Assembly (NCBI GenBank): GCA_029567195.1 | Contig: JAKQLJ010000017.1 | Location: 1-49,443 of the forward strand | Source: a bacterium | Lineage (GTDB): Bacteria > Patescibacteriota > Minisyncoccia > Moranbacterales > UBA2206 | DNA length: 49,443 nucleotides | Direction of reading: 5' to 3' | Part shown: positions 12,060 to 21,178 of the stretch, piece by piece | How positions within the stretch are numbered: the stretch's first letter is position 1 | Layout of the letters: each line of letters begins with the position of its first letter | Position numbers and translations under genes: made by a program | Notes under the pieces: model-generated | Database searches by the model: none | Told to the model about the DNA's origin: nothing | Seen by the model: the letters and a program-made list of their open reading frames with translations, nothing else

Positions 12060-14207
12060 ATGTTTTTTAGTTTTCTTTTGGTTTTTATTTTTGGTTTTTG
12101 CTTTGGAGCAAGGGCCAGCGCAACGACATATTATGTTAGTCAAAGCGCTACTAATGGATACAATATAGGAGTTGATACCAATAGCGGACAGACAAAGGAA
12201 CTCCCGTTTCTTACTGTGGGGAAAGCGGTCAGTACTTATAGCGCCGGCGATACTATTGTGCTAAATGACGGAACATATTTAACAACCGCTGGAGGATCCG
12301 GAGCTGCATATCTGACATTGACAAAAGCAGTTACGATAAATGCTGAAACTACTCTCGGAGCTACAATAACATCAACCTCGGCATCTTATACCATCTATAT
12401 AAATCCATCAGCAACGGGAACCTATACATTTGGAAGTTTAATTTTAAATTCTAATAACGTTTCTTATACATCTCTAACATTAGCCAACTCGGCATATAAT
12501 CCAACTCTTGTTTTAAACGGAACCAGAATATTAAATCCCACCTTACGGGGGATAATAGTTACAGAAGGCAATCCCGCCTTAATTGATGTAAATGATGCTT
12601 CTATTTACATATCCAGTCTTAGCAATGCCGGAACGATATTTGATTTGTCTTATCTGGCGGCTGGGAACGTAGAGATAGATGGACTGACATTAAATGTTAC
12701 CACAGCGGCTGGCGCGGCAAGCGTTGAAGGTATTAAGATAGTTTCTTCGACCGGAACAGGCTCAACAGTGAGCGTAAAAAATGTTACCGGCAGTGTTTCC
12801 AGTGCTGTTGGAAATGTGAATCCCGGAGTAATTTCAATAAACAATATTCCTTCGGCTGAAGTTTCAGATTTCGATATCACTCTAACCGCTGCCGGAACAT
12901 ATGGCATCAACATCATAACAGGAAGTGGCGCTAGCATTCACGACGGAACGATTAACTATAACGCTCCTGCTGGATATGCCATTTATTCCAATGCTCCGTC
13001 AATAAGCATTTATGGAAATACGGTTAGTAATAATAACACGGATCAGTCGAAAACTCCCCACGGAATAGCTATTTATAATACGACCGGCGGCCATGTCTAT
13101 CAAAATAGCGTTTCTGGTTTTTGTCCTGCTTATCTTGCTGCCCTTACAGATGCCACGACAATGTTTGATTATAATATAGTTATGAATCCTTATGGGAATT
13201 ATCAGCTCTATGCGAAAGGAGCCACAGGTTCGAAGTTTTATAACAACACGGTCTATGCCAGGACGGGATATAACGGAGTTTGTATGGGAATGCAGGACAA
13301 TGGAGTAACCCATAGCACAGGAGTGGAATATAAAAACAATATTTGCTATGACTCATCGACAAGTCCTAAGTTTTTATTTACTGATGCGAATCAAACCGCA
13401 ACATTTTCAAATAATCTCTATTATTCTCCCGAGGCATTAATAGCCACGTCTTGGCAATATGGAGGTTCAAATTATAGCACTTTTGCGAATTGGCAATCCG
13501 CAGAGGCTTCGGCAATATGGGGAGATCCGCTTTTTGTTTCTTCTTCCGACTATAATCTTCAATCTACTTCTCCTGCTATCAATGCCGGAATAGATGTTTC
13601 TCTTACTGCTGATTATGCGGGCAATCCAATTTGCGGTCTTCCTGATGTTGGCGCTTACGAAAATTGTGTTAGTGAGGAGGAGGAAGAAGAAGAAAACGAT
13701 CTTAATGTTCATTCCGTTAAACTGACATCCACTGAAAACTCAGTTACTCTCAAATGGAAAACTGACAATAATACTAAATCAATCGTAAAATATGGGATAA
13801 ATAAAAATATTAGAAAAAATAAAAAAGATAATGATAAGGAAAAAAATCACAAAATGACCATAAAAAATCTTCTTCCTAACACTCAATACTACTTTAAGAT
13901 AAAAGCCAAGGATAGTGAAAATAATGAGGATTCCAGTCGGGTTCATTCTATAAAAACATTGCCAAGGACAGTGATTGCCCGAACAGTCTTGTCATCTCAG
14001 AAAGAAAATCAAGCCAAGAACGAAACCGCACCTAACGCTTGCTCGTATGTCGTAGAGCCCGGCGATGCCTTATGGAGTATTGCTAAAAAAATATACGGCG
14101 ATCCCACAGCTTACTTGTTGATCATTGAGAAAAATAAAAATAATTATCCGAATATCGGATCAAAACTGTTAGTCGGGCAAAAATTAACTTTTGATTGCGA
14201 TAATTAG
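12060..14207 (+). CDS. Secreted parallel beta-helix protein with FN3 and C-terminal LysM domains
   Basis: Signal peptide ending ASA-TTYYVS, beta-helix repeats, DPLFV..DYNLQSTSPAINAG...DVGAYE, FN3 (LLPNTQYYFKI), LysM (YVVEPGDALWSIA). Confidence 0.8.
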   Translation: MFFSFLLVFIFGFCFGARASATTYYVSQSATNGYNIGVDTNSGQTKELPFLTVGKAVSTYSAGDTIVLNDGTYLTTAGGSGAAYLTLTKAVTINAETTLGATITSTSASYTIYINPSATGTYTFGSLILNSNNVSYTSLTLANSAYNPTLVLNGTRILNPTLRGIIVTEGNPALIDVNDASIYISSLSNAGTIFDLSYLAAGNVEIDGLTLNVTTAAGAASVEGIKIVSSTGTGSTVSVKNVTGSVSSAVGNVNPGVISINNIPSAEVSDFDITLTAAGTYGINIITGSGASIHDGTINYNAPAGYAIYSNAPSISIYGNTVSNNNTDQSKTPHGIAIYNTTGGHVYQNSVSGFCPAYLAALTDATTMFDYNIVMNPYGNYQLYAKGATGSKFYNNTVYARTGYNGVCMGMQDNGVTHSTGVEYKNNICYDSSTSPKFLFTDANQTATFSNNLYYSPEALIATSWQYGGSNYSTFANWQSAEASAIWGDPLFVSSSDYNLQSTSPAINAGIDVSLTADYAGNPICGLPDVGAYENCVSEEEEEEENDLNVHSVKLTSTENSVTLKWKTDNNTKSIVKYGINKNIRKNKKDNDKEKNHKMTIKNLLPNTQYYFKIKAKDSENNEDSSRVHSIKTLPRTVIARTVLSSQKENQAKNETAPNACSYVVEPGDALWSIAKKIYGDPTAYLLIIEKNKNNYPNIGSKLLVGQKLTFDCDN

Positions 14208-14310
14208 TAAAATTAATATAATCATTATCTAAAATATTTTTATAAATTTCTATCACCGACGATTTACTTTTCCGGCCGACTGTGCTAAAATACGAATAAA
14301 GAAGGAATTT

Positions 14311-15057
14311 ATGCTGGAACAAGAACTGCAAAAATTGGGATTGTCGGATAAAGAGGCGAGAATATACCTAGCTTCGCTTCAGCTTGGCAAATCGCCGGTT
14401 CAGGAGATTGCCGAGCAGGCGAAAGTTAATCGTGGAACGGCTTATGATATCATCCGGTCTTTAATGAATAAGGGTCTAATGAGCTCATTTGATCAAGGCA
14501 AAAAAACCTATTTCACGGCCGAATCGCCGGAGCGGCTTTCTAGTCTCATAAAAATCCAAGGAGAAGAACTAAAGCTTAAGGAAAAGGAATTTTCCAAATA
14601 TCTACCGGAGCTGCGTTCGATGTATGGATCGGCGGATAATAAGCCTAAAGTGAAGTATTATGAAGGCAGAGAAGGCATACTTGCTATTCAGGAGGAATGT
14701 CTTAAGGTGAAAACAAAAAATATATATGGGATTACATGCCTTGATACAGTTGCTAATTTGTTTCCCGAAACATTTAAATATTATTCACCAAAAAGAATAT
14801 CCAAAGGAATACAATCAAAAGTTATTTATACGACAATAAATGTGCCCCCGCTTAACCATGAGGATGACAAAATATCTCTTCGCGAAATGAAGCACATTCC
14901 TCATGAAGAATTTCCTTTTTCTATAGATATAACGATTTTTGATAATAAAGTTGCTTTTAGGTCATTAAATGAGGAAAAACCAGGCGGAGTTATTATAGAA
15001 GATAAACAGATTGCTGAATCTATGGTGGCAATATTTAACCGACTTTGGGAAAAATGA
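14311..15057 (+). CDS. TrmB-family HTH transcriptional regulator
   Basis: LGLSDKEARIYLASL...EIAEQAKVNRGTAYDII..L.NKGL; C-terminal YYEGREGI and IFDNKVAF. Confidence 0.88.
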   Translation: MLEQELQKLGLSDKEARIYLASLQLGKSPVQEIAEQAKVNRGTAYDIIRSLMNKGLMSSFDQGKKTYFTAESPERLSSLIKIQGEELKLKEKEFSKYLPELRSMYGSADNKPKVKYYEGREGILAIQEECLKVKTKNIYGITCLDTVANLFPETFKYYSPKRISKGIQSKVIYTTINVPPLNHEDDKISLREMKHIPHEEFPFSIDITIFDNKVAFRSLNEEKPGGVIIEDKQIAESMVAIFNRLWEK

Positions 15058-15142
15058 TTAGAGTTTCTTCTACATTTATTGAAGAGTGAAATGCCTATAA
15101 TAAGGGCATTTTTTGATATAATTGGAGTTTCGTAGATATAGA

Positions 15143-15171
15143 TTGACAAAATCAGAAATAGGTGCTATACT
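15143..15171 (+). promoter_or_regulatory. Consensus sigma-70 promoter P1
   Basis: TTGACA-17 bp-TATACT with TG extension. Confidence 0.8.
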
Positions 15172-15440
15172 TCCTGCAGTTGGTTTATTATAGCAGAAAG
15201 GAGGTAAAATACAGTGGGCGGATTCTAGCTGAAAAAGCTTCATTAACAGAAAGGATTGTGTAGATGCGGCGATTTTATCGGATTTAGGTTAAGAATGGCT
15301 AAAATGAGCGATTTATTGTTATGATCGCCAGCGTCCGCAAAAGGCAAGGGAGTTGTACTGTTTATTCAAGAAGGCAGGGAGAACACTTTGACACCCTGCA
15401 ACCGCGGGAAAACGCTTGAAACCCGCGGCGTAATATGACA

Positions 15441-15490
15441 AGGCGCTCGCTGATCTTCCCAAAGAGGACGACACGAGCGCCTCTTTTTTT
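15441..15490 (+). terminator. Intrinsic terminator ending the P1 transcript
   Basis: AGGCGCTCG...CGAGCGCCT followed by CTTTTTTT. Confidence 0.75.
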
Positions 15491-15627
15491 ATCTATTTTT
15501 TATGTTTTCAAAAGCTTGAAAAAACACGGATAAAAAATAATAGGCATAAGTCTGCTAAATTATAATACTAAAATAAGGCTTAAATAGTGTATAAAACAAC
15601 AATGACAAAAAATAATGTAGAAAAGAC

Positions 15628-15656
15628 TTGACAAAATTTCAGTCGTTTGCTATACT
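15628..15656 (+). promoter_or_regulatory. Consensus sigma-70 promoter P2 upstream of the hairpin-repeat array
   Basis: TTGACA-17 bp-TATACT with TG extension; shares TTGACAAAAT and TGCTATACT with P1. Confidence 0.8.
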
Positions 15657-15944
15657 CCCAAAGTCAAGCTAAAAGATAGATTCGTCTGGCGCTGGTTATA
15701 AGTAATATATTTTGAACCAGAAATAAAGATGAATCACTTATCTGTTTGATAAGATAAAAAATACGGTGAATATCAGGCCCTTTGACAACTTACCCTCACT
15801 TTTCTTCGCAAATTAGCTTTGTTGGGAGAAGTGAGGGAGTTATATCACATTCAACTTTTACCCGATTTGTAAATAGTTCTAAATTTTTAGAGGGAAAAAC
15901 ATTGGGTTTTTTCAATCAAATCACTCTTGCTTAGGGAGGTTACA

Positions 15945-16256
15945 ATGATCAAGAAACACAAGATCTTTCAAGTAATCCAGGAGGGAGTAATCCCGAATGG
16001 AGGCAGGGTCGAACGCTGGAAAAGCTGCAACGGAGAGTTCCATGTGGACTTTCTGATTGAGCTTTTCTTCGAGGAGAATGGTGAGGTCGCATTTGCCAGG
16101 CAACTTTTAGAAATAGAAGTCGGCCAGTGCGATTGTCAAATCATTCTCAAATACACTTTCCCTTTTTCCCAGGATGAATCCGATGAATTTGACTGGGACG
16201 ATGATCTACTAGCTGCAATGGAGGCTGGTAGATTAGAAAACTTCGCTACTCTCTAA
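15945..16256 (+). CDS. Small acidic hypothetical protein (array cassette A)
   Basis: GGGAGGT RBS, ATG at 15945; stop codon lies inside the repeat stem; paralog of the next ORF. Confidence 0.75.
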   Translation: MIKKHKIFQVIQEGVIPNGGRVERWKSCNGEFHVDFLIELFFEENGEVAFARQLLEIEVGQCDCQIILKYTFPFSQDESDEFDWDDDLLAAMEAGRLENFATL

Positions 16257-16341
16257 AAGTTTGTAAATAGTTATAAATTTTTAGAGGGAAAAACATTGGG
16301 TTTTTCCGATTGTCCTTTCGCTTTATTATAGGAGGCATACC

Positions 16342-16660
16342 ATGCGCGACTGCTGCTATATAATTTTCGAAACCGTCGAAGAAGGAACCACCCTCGATGG
16401 CGGCGTGGTTTTGCGGTCAAAAGGCTGCAATGGAGAAAATCATATGGATTTTCTTCATACGGTCTGTTATGACCAAGACGGGGGAGTTGAATGGTCCGAT
16501 GAGTTAGCTTATATCAATCGGGGCCGTTGTGATCATGGATGGTTTACTACATCCCGCCGTCTTTGCTGATAACTCCTTCCCGGATGAATATCATTGTCCG
16601 GTCGCACAGCTACCAGCTGGAATGAGGGCTGGTAGATTAAAAAACTTCGCAACTCTCTAA
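16342..16660 (+). pseudogene. Frameshifted paralog of cassette A (ORF 16342-16569; +1 frame continues to 16660)
   Basis: AGGAGG RBS; shares IF.V.EG...GG.V.R.K.CNGE.H.DFL; the shifted frame ends AGRLKNFATL* versus AGRLENFATL*. Confidence 0.65.
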
Positions 16661-17060
16661 GACATCTTTATTTACTAATGTGAGTCGAGATGTCTTAGAG
16701 GGGATTTGTTTTCCTCTTGCACTCTGCAAGATTTACCTCTGCACCATTTCTACGTCGATTATTTTTGAAGAAATAATTTAATTAGAAATGGTGCGGGGTG
16801 GGACAAAATTTTTACCTGCGAAGTTTTTATTTTGTTTAAAATCTCATCGAGATGATCTTGTGGAGTCCAAGAGGGAAGCAAATTATTCTCGCAGTAGTTT
16901 TGCTAGTTTCTTCAGAGTAAAAAACTAGCCTACGGCGTAGCTGAAACGTCGTGGAACACGGAATTATTTCGTGGCCGGAAAGATTTCGGGTTTCCTGGGA
17001 ACCTACTTATCTTTTCAGCAAGGATCAGAGAAGGGGAGAACTGGTCTAAATCAGCGATTA
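16640..17060 (+). ncRNA. Putative structured non-coding unit within the array
   Basis: No ORF of 60 aa or more; many hairpins, e.g. CTGCACCATTTCTA/TAGAAATGGTGCGG; TGCGAAGTTTTT at 16817 is complementary to the repeat motif. Confidence 0.4.
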
Positions 17061-17151
17061 TAAACTTCGCTTCCCTTAAAAAATTTTTATTTGAAAAGAA
17101 ATTTTTTAAGGGAAATAAAAACTAAAACAATCAGACTGCCGTGGAGGGGTT

Positions 17152-17343
17152 ATGGCAGATCAAATCATTCGTATTTCCGGCCAGTATCGTACTTACTCTT
17201 GGACAAGAGGTCTTGCACCTCAACGTCCGGTGCGGTCGCTGGAAGAAGAGGCTCGGAGAAATCCGCAGGCCGTTATCTTCCGCCTTCTCAATGAGGGTCG
17301 TGAAGATGAGGCTGAGAATTTTTTCCAACGCTTCGTCCAGTAA
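17152..17343 (+). CDS. Small hypothetical protein (array cassette)
   Basis: GGAGGGG RBS immediately upstream; 63 aa between repeats. Confidence 0.6.
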   Translation: MADQIIRISGQYRTYSWTRGLAPQRPVRSLEEEARRNPQAVIFRLLNEGREDEAENFFQRFVQ

Positions 17344-17649
17344 GGCCACTGCTTATCCCATAGCAGAATATAAAATGGGCGTAATACTCCGGGGAAGCAC
17401 CGGGGCGCGAGATGCCTGTCTCCCGCGTACAATCAAGTTTTAGCGGACAGGAAAAATGAGAGTGATAAAAACTTCGCACTCTCTAAAAGATTATTTTTCT
17501 AAGTAATTTTTTAGAGGGAAAAAACTTCGCAAATGATTTGCGGGGTTTTTCATTCCAAAACAATTTAAAGGGAGTGAGACATGCCAATTATCGAACGTTA
17601 TGGAGAAAGAACACCGTGGCTGGAATCCAAGCATATAGAGGAGGAAAAA

Positions 17650-17982
17650 ATGAAAAAAGTGTTGTGGTTTTCAAGGCATGAGTTGTCTCCGGAGCAGTTG
17701 GCCGATCTCAAGCGGATTTTTGGGGAGGTTGAAGTAAATCAGATCAACCAAACCATCAATCACGCCTCTGAGATCAAGGCAGACATCGAAGCAGCCGATG
17801 TTATCGCCATTGTCGCCCCGCTGCCTCTCCAGCAGGAATTCTTGCAACTGTCTGGAGTGAAGCCTGTAATATTCTGCAAGAACGCCCGTATTGTCGACCC
17901 GGTGGACAATACTAAGGTAACGTTCCAGCACACCGGGTGGTTCCGGATTAAGGAGATAAAAGTGGTTTTTGAGCCGCTCTAA
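17650..17982 (+). CDS. Hypothetical Rossmann-like protein resembling the Csx16/Csx20 family (alternative start 17581)
   Basis: GAGGAGG RBS; motifs LWFSRHELSPEQ, DVIAIVAPL and FQHTGWFR; family resemblance is from memory only. Confidence 0.6.
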   Translation: MKKVLWFSRHELSPEQLADLKRIFGEVEVNQINQTINHASEIKADIEAADVIAIVAPLPLQQEFLQLSGVKPVIFCKNARIVDPVDNTKVTFQHTGWFRIKEIKVVFEPL

Positions 17983-18127
17983 TCCTGAAACGGACCAAGA
18001 CGGAGAGTGTAAAAACTTCGCTCTCCTATAAAAATATTCTTTGAGAAGAATATTTTTATAGGAGCAGTGGGATATGGCAGTGGTTTCCACGCATACCCGT
18101 GGTGAGAGATCAAAAAAAGAGGCACAC

Positions 18128-18379
18128 ATGCCAGTTTATGAAGGTGGTGATATTCCGATGAATCATTGTGAACAAAACGAAGAACCCAAAAATAAGGAAA
18201 AAGAAATGGAAGAAAAAAAGAGTTCATTGCTGGTAATTAGAGGAATTGTTGTAGTTGCAGAGAGTGGCCGCGGTGCCGAGGAACTTATGCAGTCGGCACT
18301 CGTGCGTTTGGCAAAAATCTTAACAGAAGGAGAAAGGAATGAAAAAGAAAAAAGTTCTCAAGCCCCGCCTCCCGCGTGA
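18128..18379 (+). CDS. Small hypothetical protein (array cassette; start uncertain, 18074-18206)
   Basis: ORF track frame with AAGAGG RBS before ATG 18128. Confidence 0.45.
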   Translation: MPVYEGGDIPMNHCEQNEEPKNKEKEMEEKKSSLLVIRGIVVVAESGRGAEELMQSALVRLAKILTEGERNEKEKSSQAPPPA

Positions 18380-18470
18380 GGCGCAGGAAGTGCTTCGCCA
18401 CCGCGGCGGAGCACATAGCCAGAACGGATACGACCACGCCAAAGAAAGGAGAAAGAATAAGGTGCGGTGA
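18339..18470 (+). CDS. 43-aa basic peptide MKKKKVLKPRLPREAQEVLRHRGGAHSQNGYDHAKERRKNKVR (below the ORF-track cutoff)
   Basis: AAGGAG RBS upstream; translated by hand; stops just before the repeat at 18491. Confidence 0.55.
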   Translation: MKKKKVLKPRLPREAQEVLRHRGGAHSQNGYDHAKERRKNKVR

Positions 18471-18674
18471 AGAAAGTGGAGGGCACAATAAAAACTTCGC
18501 GCTCTCTAAAAGATAATATCAAAATAAAAATGATTAATATTATTTTTTAGAGGGAAAATATTTCATCAATTAACAACGAAAACGTAAAAGGAGAGAAGCA
18601 TGTATACGGTAAAAGACAATGGGTTGCGTCACGGATTGCTTCATAATTCCGGTCAAGGACAACTGATTTAGGAA

Positions 18675-19136
18675 ATGGAAGAAAAGTTCATGAATACTGG
18701 CGAGGAACAAGTTTTCATAACGCACATTGAAGAATCCGAGGGTTTTATGGAACCTAAAGACATTTACGAGGTGACTTGCACCCTTAAAGTACGGGATGAA
18801 GTGAATAGGGTGGGTTATTGGACATATCGGAAAAACAAATTTACTAACAGGAGGCAAGCCATGAGATTCAAAGGTAATCCGTTCCAAAAGACCAGCTACA
18901 ACGATTCAAAAACTCCCCGTAATCTACTCGAAGTTGTTGCTGTTGCCGCTCGTGATCTCAAGCTCGATCTGGTTAATGGTTGCTGTCACAACATCTGGCT
19001 AGAAGCTCGCTCTCGCTCTGCCGAAAGGCGCATCCTCGCTCATGCTGAAACTCTCTCGGAAAAAGATCCTCGCATTCTCGCTACAGTTGAGTCGTTCAAA
19101 ATCGCTCTCCGCTCATATGTTTGTTCCTTCCGTTAA
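18675..19136 (+). CDS. Hypothetical protein (array cassette; internal GGAGG + ATG 18861 suggests a second start)
   Basis: 153 aa ORF between the repeats at 18491 and 19205. Confidence 0.6.
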   Translation: MEEKFMNTGEEQVFITHIEESEGFMEPKDIYEVTCTLKVRDEVNRVGYWTYRKNKFTNRRQAMRFKGNPFQKTSYNDSKTPRNLLEVVAVAARDLKLDLVNGCCHNIWLEARSRSAERRILAHAETLSEKDPRILATVESFKIALRSYVCSFR

Positions 19137-19326
19137 TTCACCTCAAAGGCTTATGCTTGAGCCTAGTAATAGAATCAAGCAACGTGAAAAAATTTCGCAA
19201 TCAAAAAACTTCGTGCTCTCTAAAATAATTTTTATTTAAGAATTATTTTAGAGGGAATTTGAAAAAACAACCGAAGTCTATGTTCAAATTTTTTTTGGGG
19301 CCAATTAGATAAAATATTTTTATAAA

Positions 19327-19359
19327 AAAATCGCCAAAAGTTTCTTATTTGGCGATTTT
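19327..19359. terminator. Terminator hairpin closing the array
   Basis: AAAATCGCCAAA...TTTGGCGATTTT. Confidence 0.65.
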
Positions 19360-19376
19360 GTGTTATAATAAAACAA

Positions 19377-20039
19377 ATGAAAAAAAGTAAAAATAAAAAT
19401 ATGAAAAAAAATAAAAAAGATATAAGTGTCGGCCTTTTTTATCCATGGAAAATTTTTCTGATTTTTTCTATCGCTTTTTTAAACCTGCTTACTTATTTTT
19501 TAGTTCTTCATTTTAAAATCCCGCTTTTTCTTGATACTTGGGCGACGGCCTTAGGAACGCTTCTTGGCGGTCTTCCGGTCGGAATTATCGGAGGTGTCCT
19601 GTATAACGTGGTTTTGTCTTCTGTAACCGGAGGTCCGGTTTCCATTATCTGGGCGCTATCCAGCATTCTTATAGCGATAATGACCTGGGTTTTCTGGGAA
19701 AGGGGATGGATGGATATTAAAAAACCAAAAATGGTTTTAGTTTCAGGGCTTATTACCGGATTTTTTAACGGCATGCTTACTCTTCTCATCAGCTTTGCTT
19801 TTTTTGACGGACTGCCTACTTTTGAGCCAACGGCGGTGATTTGGGAAAAATGTTATAATCTTTTCGGCGGTAATATCGTGGCAGCCGGACTTTTTGAGCA
19901 TATGGGGGTGGAAATTGTCGATAAAACCTTGGTTTTTTTCATTGCCGCGTTTTTGCTTGATCTTCTAACAAGAAACAGAAAAAAAAGAAAAAACAAAAAA
20001 CCTGCCTTGATCAAGAAAAAAGCGCTCCGGAAGAAGTAG
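19377..20039 (+). CDS. Multi-TM membrane protein, ECF transporter S-component-like
   Basis: PLFLDT..T....LLGG...G...G motif, about 6 TM helices, E.VDK near the C-terminus. Confidence 0.65.
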   Translation: MKKSKNKNMKKNKKDISVGLFYPWKIFLIFSIAFLNLLTYFLVLHFKIPLFLDTWATALGTLLGGLPVGIIGGVLYNVVLSSVTGGPVSIIWALSSILIAIMTWVFWERGWMDIKKPKMVLVSGLITGFFNGMLTLLISFAFFDGLPTFEPTAVIWEKCYNLFGGNIVAAGLFEHMGVEIVDKTLVFFIAAFLLDLLTRNRKKRKNKKPALIKKKALRKK

Positions 20040-20208
20040 TTTATTTTTGTAAAATTTTTTTGTGTGCCATAAACGCGTCTTTTTTTGAGCGCGTTTTAAT
20101 TTATTGGCTGTCTTGACAAAATCTTTTTTTCATCTTAAATTAACAGGAAAGCGTTTTGAGGCGTCAAGTTAATTTATCCCGTTATAAACCAAAGGAGGAG
20201 GGTAGCTA

Positions 20209-20850
20209 ATGAAATCGGGATTTTTTATTTTTCTGTCTTTCATCGCGCTTGTTTTTTTGACAGTTCCTTCAAATGTGGTTGCGCAAAGCGCTGTTCAAGG
20301 TCCAAAAGAAGTAGTGGCGGCGGCATCAAGCGAATTTATTTCAGTCATGGAAAAGAACATTTCCCAAAAGGAAAAGAAAGCGGAATTGGGATGGCTAGTC
20401 GACCAATATTTCGACTTGGTGGAAATGGGAAGGAGATCTTTGGGTCCGGTTTTTAAGCGGATAGGGGAAAAAGAACGCTCCCGTTTTCTAGATTTATTCC
20501 CTAAGGCTTTTTCCAAAACCAACGATTTTGTCAAAAAGATATTCGATTTTCAGGATGAAAAAATACGAATAATCAAGGAAGAAACAAAAGACAATGTAGC
20601 GGTGGTTTATACAAATGTCATAGGCAGCCGGATGAAGGATGATGGCGTAAGCGTGAACTACCGGCTTATTCTGAAAGATGGAAAGTGGAAGATTTACGAC
20701 ATTCTCATTGAAGACATCAATTGGAGCTGCATTTTGTCGTATAAGGATGAATTTTCAATAGGAGAGAGAATAAGAGGCGATTCGATCTCCGGCCTGCTGG
20801 CGTATCTGGAAGAAAAAATAAACAAGGAAGAGCAATCTCTTTCGAACTAA
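20209..20850 (+). CDS. MlaC/Ttg2D-family periplasmic phospholipid-binding-like protein
   Basis: Signal peptide; YFDLVEMGRRSLG...ERSRFLDLF; VNYRL...GKWKIYDILIEDI..Y..EF. Confidence 0.75.
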   Translation: MKSGFFIFLSFIALVFLTVPSNVVAQSAVQGPKEVVAAASSEFISVMEKNISQKEKKAELGWLVDQYFDLVEMGRRSLGPVFKRIGEKERSRFLDLFPKAFSKTNDFVKKIFDFQDEKIRIIKEETKDNVAVVYTNVIGSRMKDDGVSVNYRLILKDGKWKIYDILIEDINWSCILSYKDEFSIGERIRGDSISGLLAYLEEKINKEEQSLSN

Positions 20851-20855
20851 ATACG

Positions 20856-20888
20856 GGAACCCCCAAAGGGGTTCCTCTTTTTCTTTTC
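20856..20888 (+). terminator. Intrinsic terminator
   Basis: GGAACCCC-caaa-GGGGTTCC plus T-rich tail. Confidence 0.75.
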
Positions 20889-20936
20889 AAAAAAATAATT
20901 TTGTTGTTATAATAAACCAGGGAAAATAAATTTTAC

Positions 20937-21007
20937 CGGGGCATAGTATACCGGTAGTACGCACCCATGGGGTGGGCGTAGACTGGGTTCGATTCCCAGT
21001 GCCCCGA
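20937..21007 (+). tRNA. tRNA-Pro(GGG)
   Basis: Acceptor CGGGGCA/TGCCCCG, anticodon loop ATGGGGT (one stem mismatch), GGTTCGATT. Confidence 0.85.
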
Positions 21008-21178
21008 CATTCTGAGGCGAGCGATTTTTTTGAATTCCTGCCGGCTGACGGGCAGGCAGACAGAAATTGCCGGTATCCTGACTGGTAAAGACTTTGATAA
21101 AAGCTAAAAAATAGATTTTTTTAGTTACAGATCGAACAATAATTTTAAATATAAAATCAGTTTCAAAAGACAAAAAAC

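Follow-up and report, generated by a model that had tools for sequence, protein, structure and literature searches.

A TrmB-linked, hypervariable operon of small genes in Moranbacterales, putatively punctuated by a two-helix RNA module

What is an array of small genes which lies behind a single strong promoter and carries a structured repeat between its genes? We examined this question in a 49,443-nucleotide stretch of DNA (assembly GCA_029567195.1, contig JAKQLJ010000017.1, positions 1 to 49,443 of the forward strand; hereafter the window), which comes from a member of the Patescibacteriota (order Moranbacterales, GTDB lineage UBA2206) and is contig C16 of a genome assembly of 829,108 bases in 54 contigs (G000). 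On sequence evidence, positions 15628-19368 are probably transcribed as a unit and make up a hypervariable, TrmB-linked operon of small genes. We assign a probability of about 0.5 to the reading that its one long transcript is punctuated by an RNA module of two helices, which would serve processing, stabilisation or switching. The initial annotation of this DNA had offered two explanations: a gene-cassette capture system, with the motif and hairpin of the repeat as a recombination site in single-stranded DNA acted on in trans, or a polycistron cut into per-gene RNAs at each stem.

The repeat consists of AAAACTTCG(C/T) followed by a hairpin of 16-19 bp, which we call P2. Seven full copies were found on the + strand, starting at 16237, 16641, 17061, 17468, 18012, 18491 and 19205; the positions and spacings (404-714 bp) given by the initial annotation were confirmed by the sequence. 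A covariance model of the repeat (R1), built from eight other copies out of four genomes, recovered 7/7 window repeats at 45-79 bits:

16232-16292, + strand: repeat 1, motif and hairpin P2 (R1 60.2 bits; -24.0 kcal/mol, z -4.75)
16636-16706, + strand: repeat 2 (R1 47.6 bits; fold z -6.63)
17056-17117, + strand: repeat 3, with the variant stem TTCCCTT/AAGGGAA (R1 57.0 bits; fold z -6.23)
17463-17550, + strand: repeat 4 and an eighth motif copy (R1 78.8 bits; -36.1 kcal/mol, z -7.34)
18007-18068, + strand: repeat 5, variant stem with 19 perfect pairs (R1 45.4 bits; inverted repeat I6, 100%)
18486-18558, + strand: repeat 6 (R1 59.7 bits)
19200-19259, + strand: repeat 7, motif ending in T (R1 72.0 bits)

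All seven hairpins folded on the + strand with z-scores of -4.75 to -7.34 against shuffled sequences, and each was at least as stable on this strand as its reverse complement (e.g. -36.1 vs -18.7 kcal/mol). The outer stem reads CTCTCT(A)AAA / TTT(T)AGAGGG in 5/7 window copies, and the tract 3' of the hairpins is A-rich (GGGAAAA) with no T-run. The eighth motif copy (17521) forms the 5' arm of a terminator-like hairpin which is followed by a U-run, just after repeat 4. Two further "degenerate copies" did not hold up as such: the one at 15853-15894 is merely the 3' half of the repeat (94% identical to 16260-16310; fold z -1.0, not significant), and the one near 15787 is a separate hairpin which is kept in the leaders of other arrays.

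When relatives and metagenome contigs were included, R1 gave 58 matches, of which 53 were distinct. Across these 53 copies 96.7% of P2 cells are paired, there is no conserved bulge, and the foot of the stem is conserved (CUCUCU/AGAGGG base). Compensatory change on both sides was observed at 14/17 P2 pairs, and neither any of 500 shuffles (0/500) nor any slid register came near the observed score. A U.G wobble occurs at pair 2 in 46/53 copies and at pair 16 in 40/53. After removal of one row (L026:6015-6073, a reverse-strand echo of the copy in G024), the remaining 52 rows (884 cells) contain 113 G.U pairs vs 14 A.C pairs. Because of this asymmetry and the covariation of the stem, the structure belongs to the ORF-carrying sense strand, and is most simply an RNA. 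The initial annotation was therefore right that the stem sequence varies while its pairing is kept, with strand-specific G-U pairs.

The motif in front of P2 is not present in every array, and the copies without it indicate what it may be. All 19 motif-less copies which were folded (19/19, in two sets of 9/9 and 10/10) form a hairpin of unrelated sequence, 6-15 bp long, which abuts P2; the 3' strand of this cis hairpin meets P2 via a junction of 0-2 nt. Neither of the two motif-type copies folded alongside has a cis hairpin (2/2), and the arrays of G042, G091 and G092 mix both types of copy. As the cis hairpins occupy the place of the motif in motif-less copies, we take the conserved feature to be two abutting helices, P1 directly 5' of P2, with the 3' strand of P1 being the motif AAAAACUUCGC in the seven window copies. 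The motif is thus best read as one strand of a second helix which is formed either in cis or in trans.

A candidate partner for the motif lies in the same array. The initial annotation had noted one non-coding unit between the repeats; this was confirmed, and the unit was found to hold a hairpin which had been overlooked and whose loop is complementary to the motif:

16707-17055, + strand: non-coding unit with no ORF that has a ribosome-binding site, containing a hairpin with 24-nt arms at 16741-16794 (inverted repeat I4)
16793-16846, + strand: anti-motif hairpin, its loop the reverse complement of the motif (R2 45.9 bits; sole match in the genome)

R2 is a second covariance model, for the anti-motif hairpin. 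The anti-motif is perfectly complementary to repeats 4 and 6 over 14-17 nt (inverted repeats I15 and I18), and its loop is the only perfect partner of the motif nearby. Each array which could be read from its start has one such hairpin on the same strand, with a conserved anti-motif loop and a stem that varies yet remains paired; the non-coding unit of the window is the counterpart of this leader domain of other arrays. Over 30 loci R2 found 17 hairpins (15 distinct), at most one per locus and always on the strand of the array, and the covariation score of the stem was 0.661 vs 0.273 for shuffled alignments (0/500). At the 16 loci other than the window which match R2, every full-length R1 match is downstream of the anti-motif. 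Among 71 genomes of the family, six match R1 below E 1e-6 and 5/6 of these carry R2 on the same contig and strand, with one R2 match per genome; the sixth, G271, has a cis-hairpin copy instead. Arrays of another family (G042, G091, G092) likewise hold a co-located anti-motif, and G049, whose four repeats all lack the motif, gave no R2 match. In a duplex scan with the loop only, the six best partners within the transcript were motif copies (-15.0 to -17.5 kcal/mol), while stem sequences dominated the result when the complete anti-motif hairpin was used. We infer a pairing of loop and motif from their position, conservation and co-occurrence; energy is not among the grounds.

A further candidate pairing involves the sequence just upstream. 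A purine-rich box 5-12 nt upstream of the motif can pair with the P2 foot; for 29/47 copies, pairing of the foot with the preceding 35 nt scored z < -2 relative to shuffled sequences, and variant P2 feet are accompanied by matching variant purine boxes. This suggests an alternative fold in which the motif would lie in a loop.

It should be noted that intercistronic hairpins which merely protect the upstream mRNA are common, and the copies could also be passive stabilisers or selfish palindromes similar to repetitive extragenic palindromic (REP) sequences or miniature inverted-repeat transposable elements (MITEs), in which case motif and anti-motif would be functionless. The tandem duplication of units is compatible with this. 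However, the distribution in the genome is not that of dispersed elements. There are 12 occurrences of the core AAACTTCG in the window, where 2.60 ± 1.57 would be expected (0/100 shuffles reach 12), with eight copies on the + strand at 16238-19213 and one - strand copy at 16819-16826. In the whole 829-kb assembly, 7/7 copies of the 10-mer AAAACTTCGC and 5/5 copies of TTAGAGGGAA are inside the array locus, and R1 gave 11 matches, namely the seven repeats and four reverse-strand echoes, all in 16232-19266. All copies in the genome are thus in a single 3-kb locus and a single orientation, unlike a generic REP or terminator scattered genome-wide, and the model recurs in relatives. Moreover, conservation of the motif, the anti-motif loop and the P2 foot extends across families of the order, alongside covarying stems, and motif and anti-motif co-occur. 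We consider passive or selfish repeats very unlikely.

The modules lie within what reads as a single transcription unit, bounded as follows:

15628-15656, + strand: array promoter, TTGACA-17-TATACT (11/12 consensus positions, TG extension)
15657-15944, + strand: leader with a hairpin (about 15793-15837) and a 3' half-repeat (15866-15916), built of blocks common to three other arrays
19318-19368, + strand: terminator-like hairpin and T-run closing the unit (inverted repeat I12; read from the sequence)

The promoter matches the one initially annotated. It is the sole strong promoter of the array, as a scan inside 15657-19326 found no + strand match of at least 10/12, and it aligns with the promoters of the arrays in G127, G272 and G049; the promoter and several leader blocks are alignable across the four arrays. 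The terminator which had been placed at 19327 is borne out in that there is an inverted repeat with a T-run at 19318-19368, although it is absent from the listing of the terminator scan. Terminator-like hairpins with U-runs also come after repeats 1 and 4 and after the half-repeat.

The proposed mechanism is as follows. The anti-motif loop would pair with each motif and so complete P1, stacked on P2; alternatively, the purine box would pair with the P2 foot and hold the module in the other fold. On this view the cis-type copies would be static, and those of the motif type their switchable counterparts. The completed module may be a site of endonucleolytic cutting, of end protection, or of both, where the stacked helices would be a substrate for RNase III, or the junction one for RNase Y. 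The outcome would be per-cassette mRNAs with hairpins at both ends, whose expression is tied to the leader RNA. Genes for RNase III and for RNase Y were found in 5/5 array genomes each, and RNase E/G was found in 0/5. Judged from the sequences, the most likely use of the module is endonucleolytic division of the transcript and protection of the ends of the per-cassette mRNAs. Of the two explanations first offered, a polycistron cut at its stems therefore fits best, with compensatory pairing, sense-strand U.G pairs, one promoter and the RNase III and Y genes in its favour; the cutting itself is a prediction. More tentatively, the leader loop may be a shared guide which pairs with the 11-nt motif before every cassette and licenses the cutting or switching of its mRNA, in a logic resembling that of tracrRNA (see below) but applied to the expression of an operon, and the operon may be a regulator-anchored, integrase-free store that turns over small, partly phage-like proteins.

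In the early region of phage T7, RNase III processing hairpins lie between the cistrons of a polycistronic RNA. Our array resembles these sites in its strong promoter, its polycistron of small genes, its sense-strand intercistronic hairpins and the RNase III gene of the host, and double-stranded RNA between cistrons is predicted here too, as seven hairpins of 16-19 bp lie between ORFs behind one promoter. It differs in having two abutting helices, of which one has a linear strand whose complementary loop is encoded elsewhere in the unit, and in being found on the chromosome of a candidate phylum (R1 matched 0/28 viral loci), with cleavage a prediction. In mitochondrial polycistrons tRNA punctuation, and in bacteria REP sequences and bacterial interspersed mosaic elements (BIMEs), are cases where a structured RNA marks processing points or protects mRNA ends. 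Unlike the former, the modules are not tRNA-like (no tRNA was found in 15000-19500 by ARAGORN and Rfam), and unlike the latter they are confined to one locus and not spread genome-wide. A complementary segment acting along a transcript is known from type II CRISPR (clustered regularly interspaced short palindromic repeats) systems, where the trans-activating CRISPR RNA (tracrRNA) pairs with the repeats of the precursor CRISPR RNA to give a duplex suited to RNase III. The likeness, one segment complementary to a sequence repeated along a transcript, is an analogy only: here the "spacers" are 400-700 nt of mRNA, there are no cas genes, and the complement is a hairpin loop in the same transcript. 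The array is indeed not a CRISPR, as had been said before, given the 404-714 bp spacing, the ORFs between repeats and the finding by PADLOC of no cas protein among the ORFs. The TrmB gene did give weak CasR/Csa3-type PADLOC matches over residues 3-114, the same N-terminal region as the TrmB helix-turn-helix (6-70).

Several observations weigh against the two-helix RNA reading or against parts of it. Alignments A4 and A6 were fitted to the models, so that their pair counts lean toward structure, and many copies are kin, drawn from related arrays, so that the statistics overstate their independence, although the direction which they indicate is clear. G.T wobbles are also tolerated in single-stranded DNA, and strand specificity by itself is compatible with a DNA role. 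No significant purine box is present in 18/47 copies, including window repeats 1, 2 and 7. Two window repeats are upstream of the anti-motif, and a single anti-motif would have to serve at least seven motifs; repeats 3 and 7 pair with the loop more weakly (-12.4 kcal/mol for repeat 3), and A/U-rich sites elsewhere in the window reach -15 to -18 kcal/mol with it. The leaders of other arrays hold a motif copy of their own which is able to pair locally, and the anti-motif loop may serve the leader's own fold and not the cassettes. None of the sequencing runs which contain the locus is on record as RNA.

The genes between the repeats are as follows:

15945-16256, + strand: ORF A, 103 aa, its last codons within repeat 1 (ORF list)
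16342-16660, + strand: ORF B, a paralogue of ORF A split over two frames (16342-16569 and 16529-16660; direct repeats D3, D4 and D10)
17152-17343, + strand: ORF C, 63 aa (ORF list)
17345-17462, + strand: structured spacer (75% identity to G018:C3 (L027) over 17348-17519, 172 nt)
17650-17982, + strand: ORF D, 110 aa from 17650, with an ATG at 17581 possible (phrog_31280, E 7.1e-7)
18074-18470, + strand: ORF E (18074-18379) and the small basic ORF F (18339-18470), overlapping (ORF list)
18600-19136, + strand: ORF G/H (18600-18860, in-frame TAG at 18669-18671) continuing into ORF I (18861-19136)

For ORFs A, B, C, E, F, G/H and I, searches of Pfam, PHROG, NCBIfam and PADLOC gave nothing at a meaningful E-value. 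ORF D, the only cassette ORF with a PHROG match, falls in a family which has phage members and no assigned function, and its look-alike clusters are in part viral. A gene in a second TrmB-linked cluster, in G018:C1, shows 69% identity to ORF D. ORF G/H is 58% identical to another gene of G018:C1 when the stop is read as X, and together with ORF I could be a pseudogene, a read-through product or a fusion. There are nearly no recognisable families among the ORFs. They had initially been described as mostly unrelated, but ORFs A and B are paralogues, with B frameshifted. The final codons of both read across the motif into the hairpin, and the tandem duplication which they are part of covers a whole unit (15866-16663: 3' half of the hairpin, leader, ORF, motif and 5' half of the hairpin). 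The spacer upstream of repeat 4 contains paired GC-rich segments, and other arrays share other spacer elements upstream of their repeats, such as a hairpin between GCAAGCGGGG and CCUGGCAACAGAA in L199, L187, L202 and L178. Several cassette proteins of other arrays are small and cysteine-rich.

ORF F is relevant to an alternative in which the repeat is a protein-binding site on RNA, with the box and hairpin bound by ORF F or a host factor for processive antitermination or translational control, much as at the nut sites of phages, without cleavage. A box plus hairpin with a fixed U.G pair and a conserved stem foot is typical of protein recognition, and the U-run hairpins after repeats 1 and 4 and the half-repeat would offer a target, since pairing or binding at the motif arm (repeat 4) could prevent termination. 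ORF F itself is a lysine/arginine-rich protein of 43 aa whose homologues recur in the arrays of G000, G127, G049, G059 and G272 and in metagenomes, and it is the only protein common to many arrays. However, most repeats have no following terminator, the cis P1 hairpins offer no conserved sequence to read, and ORF F is absent from the small array of G024 (no match in L026). The ORF F family comprises 71 proteins, all unnamed, and ORF F itself gave no match in Pfam, NCBIfam or solved structures up to E 10. To our knowledge, at least seven sites per operon would also be unlike known nut or put systems. We regard a protein-binding site as unlikely. Separately, ORF F was considered as an ArfA-like ribosome-rescue factor, and this was dropped on the same lack of matches. 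Homologues of ORF F without the usual stop were seen in L188, L004/L176, L200 and L177, where they run 40-90 codons into the following structured region.

We also compared gene order among relatives to determine how the cassettes turn over. Repeat-bounded indels and replacements were present, and related arrays are mosaics whose block ends are often at or near repeats and not at one fixed nucleotide. L183 and L198 show 97.6% and 99.6% identity in the two flanks of a middle part which has been exchanged (700 vs 1079 nt), and the exchanged segments have their closest relatives in other arrays. L189 and L204 share a unit with 92% identity which opens at position +1 of a repeat and stops at +27 of the following one, between unrelated flanks, and a block common to G127 and L199 (91%) begins 2 nt into the repeat. 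Homologues of ORFs D and G/H are adjacent in G018:C1, while in the window they are parted by repeat 5, ORFs E and F and repeat 6. Among 71 non-edge block ends, 28 are within 30 nt of a repeat boundary and nine more are 120-136 nt upstream, at the start of a longer conserved spacer, though this is a plain count, the ends are non-independent and conserved repeats stop BLAST blocks trivially. As the end points vary, homologous recombination between repeats is favoured over a site-specific enzyme. From these comparisons, the best reading is that the repeats act as portable homology, through which recombination would swap, duplicate and delete cassettes.

A similar process has been described for the promoter early stem-loops (PeSLs) of T4-type phages, stem-loop regulatory repeats which flank small ORFan genes in hyperplastic regions, where recombination between repeats leads to insertions, deletions and replacements and mini-circles have been shown (PMC2839356, PMC4122927). 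PeSLs are alike in that the repeats bound indels and replacements of small ORFan genes, as in our pairs L183/L198, L189/L204 and G127/L199. They differ in being a sigma-70-like promoter plus a terminator stem-loop, where our repeats have no internal promoter and an A-rich tract instead of a U-run, and in their mini-circles, of which none were seen here (contigs only). By analogy with PeSLs, homologous recombination between conserved regulatory repeats would suffice.

The alternative is a DNA-level, site-specific cassette system, with the top-strand motif and hairpin acting in single-stranded DNA under a recombinase from elsewhere, as in an integron. The arrangement has parallels with integrons and with clusters of attC sites lacking integron integrases (CALINs), namely a single promoter located on a conserved platform, small promoterless cassettes (a few hundred bp) whose content varies among relatives, and one strand-specific imperfect palindrome per cassette. 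The window has one promoter at a conserved anchor of TrmB gene and leader, variable small-ORF units with one repeat after each at a spacing of 404-714 bp, differing downstream flanks across arrays and a tandem duplication of the unit 15866-16259; together with the mosaic arrays and the 28/71 block ends near repeats, these speak for a cassette system. On the other side, the ends are scattered (+1, +13, +17, +27, -1 and about -120 from the repeat) and 43/71 are further away. The structured strand is the sense strand, and the system would have no role for cis hairpins of arbitrary sequence or for the anti-motif loop. The sites also differ from attC, as the initial annotation had stated: the outer stem departs from the RYYYAAC / GTTRRRY consensus given there, and where attC folds from the bottom strand with extrahelical bases, here the stem is bulge-free and its U.G asymmetry favours the top strand.

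Nor was a dedicated recombinase found. It was confirmed that there is no integrase or reverse transcriptase (RT) in the window; a Y1/HUH transposase is absent from it too, and in contrast to an integron no integrase adjoins the array. Tyrosine recombinases were present in 5/5 array genomes but also in 14/14 controls, with none near the array (in G000 the Phage_integrase matches are on contigs C38, C20 and C11, and none is on C16); Y1 transposases were found in 3/5 array genomes, weakly in G000, and RT in 1/5. In G127, which carries seven copies, a single tyrosine recombinase was found, and neither Y1 nor RT. Co-occurrence of the array with these enzymes did not exceed that in control genomes. 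A search for rearranged or joined cassette forms in the DNA contigs of four sequencing runs over 14300-20900 found none, although contigs drop rare forms. One loose join (17488/16275) was considered as a cassette joint and rejected, as it derives from a related array in the same sample. In all, cassette capture is matched by the mosaic evolutionary pattern but not by the variable ends and the lack of a dedicated recombinase, and we consider site-specific DNA recombination very unlikely.

Further features were found around the array:

14311-15057, + strand: gene for a TrmB-family winged-helix regulator, the upstream anchor (Pfam TrmB, E 2.4e-15)
15143-15490, + strand: second promoter (15143-15171; 11/12 with TG) and an ORF-less, leader-like unit with a hairpin and T-run at its end

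The second promoter lies ~85 nt past the TrmB gene, with an ORF-less stretch of ~320 nt downstream. This unit and the array leaders have a promoter and a CTTTGACA box in common, and it may represent either a small RNA in its own right or what is left of a leader. Positions 12060-14207, upstream of the TrmB gene, encode a repeat-rich protein of 715 aa with an N-terminal hydrophobic segment and, by eye, a LysM-like C-terminal end. The downstream neighbour of the array had been labelled an "S-component", for which there was no significant Pfam match (only DUF1412 below threshold, E 0.062). A tRNA-Pro (GGG) was called at 20937-21008 by ARAGORN and is absent from the Rfam gathering-score list. Rfam 15 gave only tRNAs at gathering score in the window, none of which matches the module; the best hit in 15000-19500 was an animal miRNA model (E 0.041), far below its gathering score.

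The locus type, consisting of a TrmB-family gene, a promoter, a structured leader and variable small ORFs, is found repeatedly within the order. In G127, G049 and G272, in the metagenome loci L204 and L202, and in G017, the array is likewise preceded by a TrmB-family gene, while the downstream neighbour varies between TsaE (G127), a methyltransferase (G049) and, in the window, a membrane protein of no identified family. R1 matched 11/71 genomes of the family at E <= 0.01 and 12/151 sampled genomes of the order at E <= 1e-4, which cover six of twelve families including that of the window; in a sample of 151 genomes from the class, one other genome outside the order matched. The exact sequence pattern was found in 4/319 genomes of the order and in 29 metagenome stretches. 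In a pattern scan of genome contigs, among the matches listed, most were single chance matches and only the Patescibacteria records were real. A viral origin was rejected: 28 viral stretches hold the pattern, 0/28 match R1 and ten share one unrelated conserved sequence.

The second TrmB-linked cluster of small ORFs in G018 (L209; G018:C1:433500-441000, minus strand), in which the homologues of ORF D and ORF G/H are side by side, had no R1 match with filters off. By eye it contains a different intercistronic repeat, twice, and a nucleotidyltransferase/HEPN-like pair (judged from the translations) lies between the cluster and its TrmB gene.

Full-text literature searches, which do not extend to supplementary files, found no description of the locus or the module. 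Processing hairpins between cistrons and the repeat-mediated shuffling of cassettes both have precedents. The apparent novelty lies in a helix that is completed locally in some copies and by a shared loop in others, in the same position of the module, in a regulator-anchored, variable operon found order-wide. These organisms have genomes of ~1 Mb and almost no described RNA biology, yet spend 4-6 kb on a strongly promoted, heavily structured transcript, the genes of which differ among close relatives. As a testable case of one helix position that can be filled in cis or in trans, the module would give a handle on how a minimal cell without RNase E divides or tunes polycistronic RNA. Cassette-style gene turnover without an integron integrase would also bear on the variable gene pool of reduced genomes, and R1 and R2 can be used to annotate this locus type in metagenomes.

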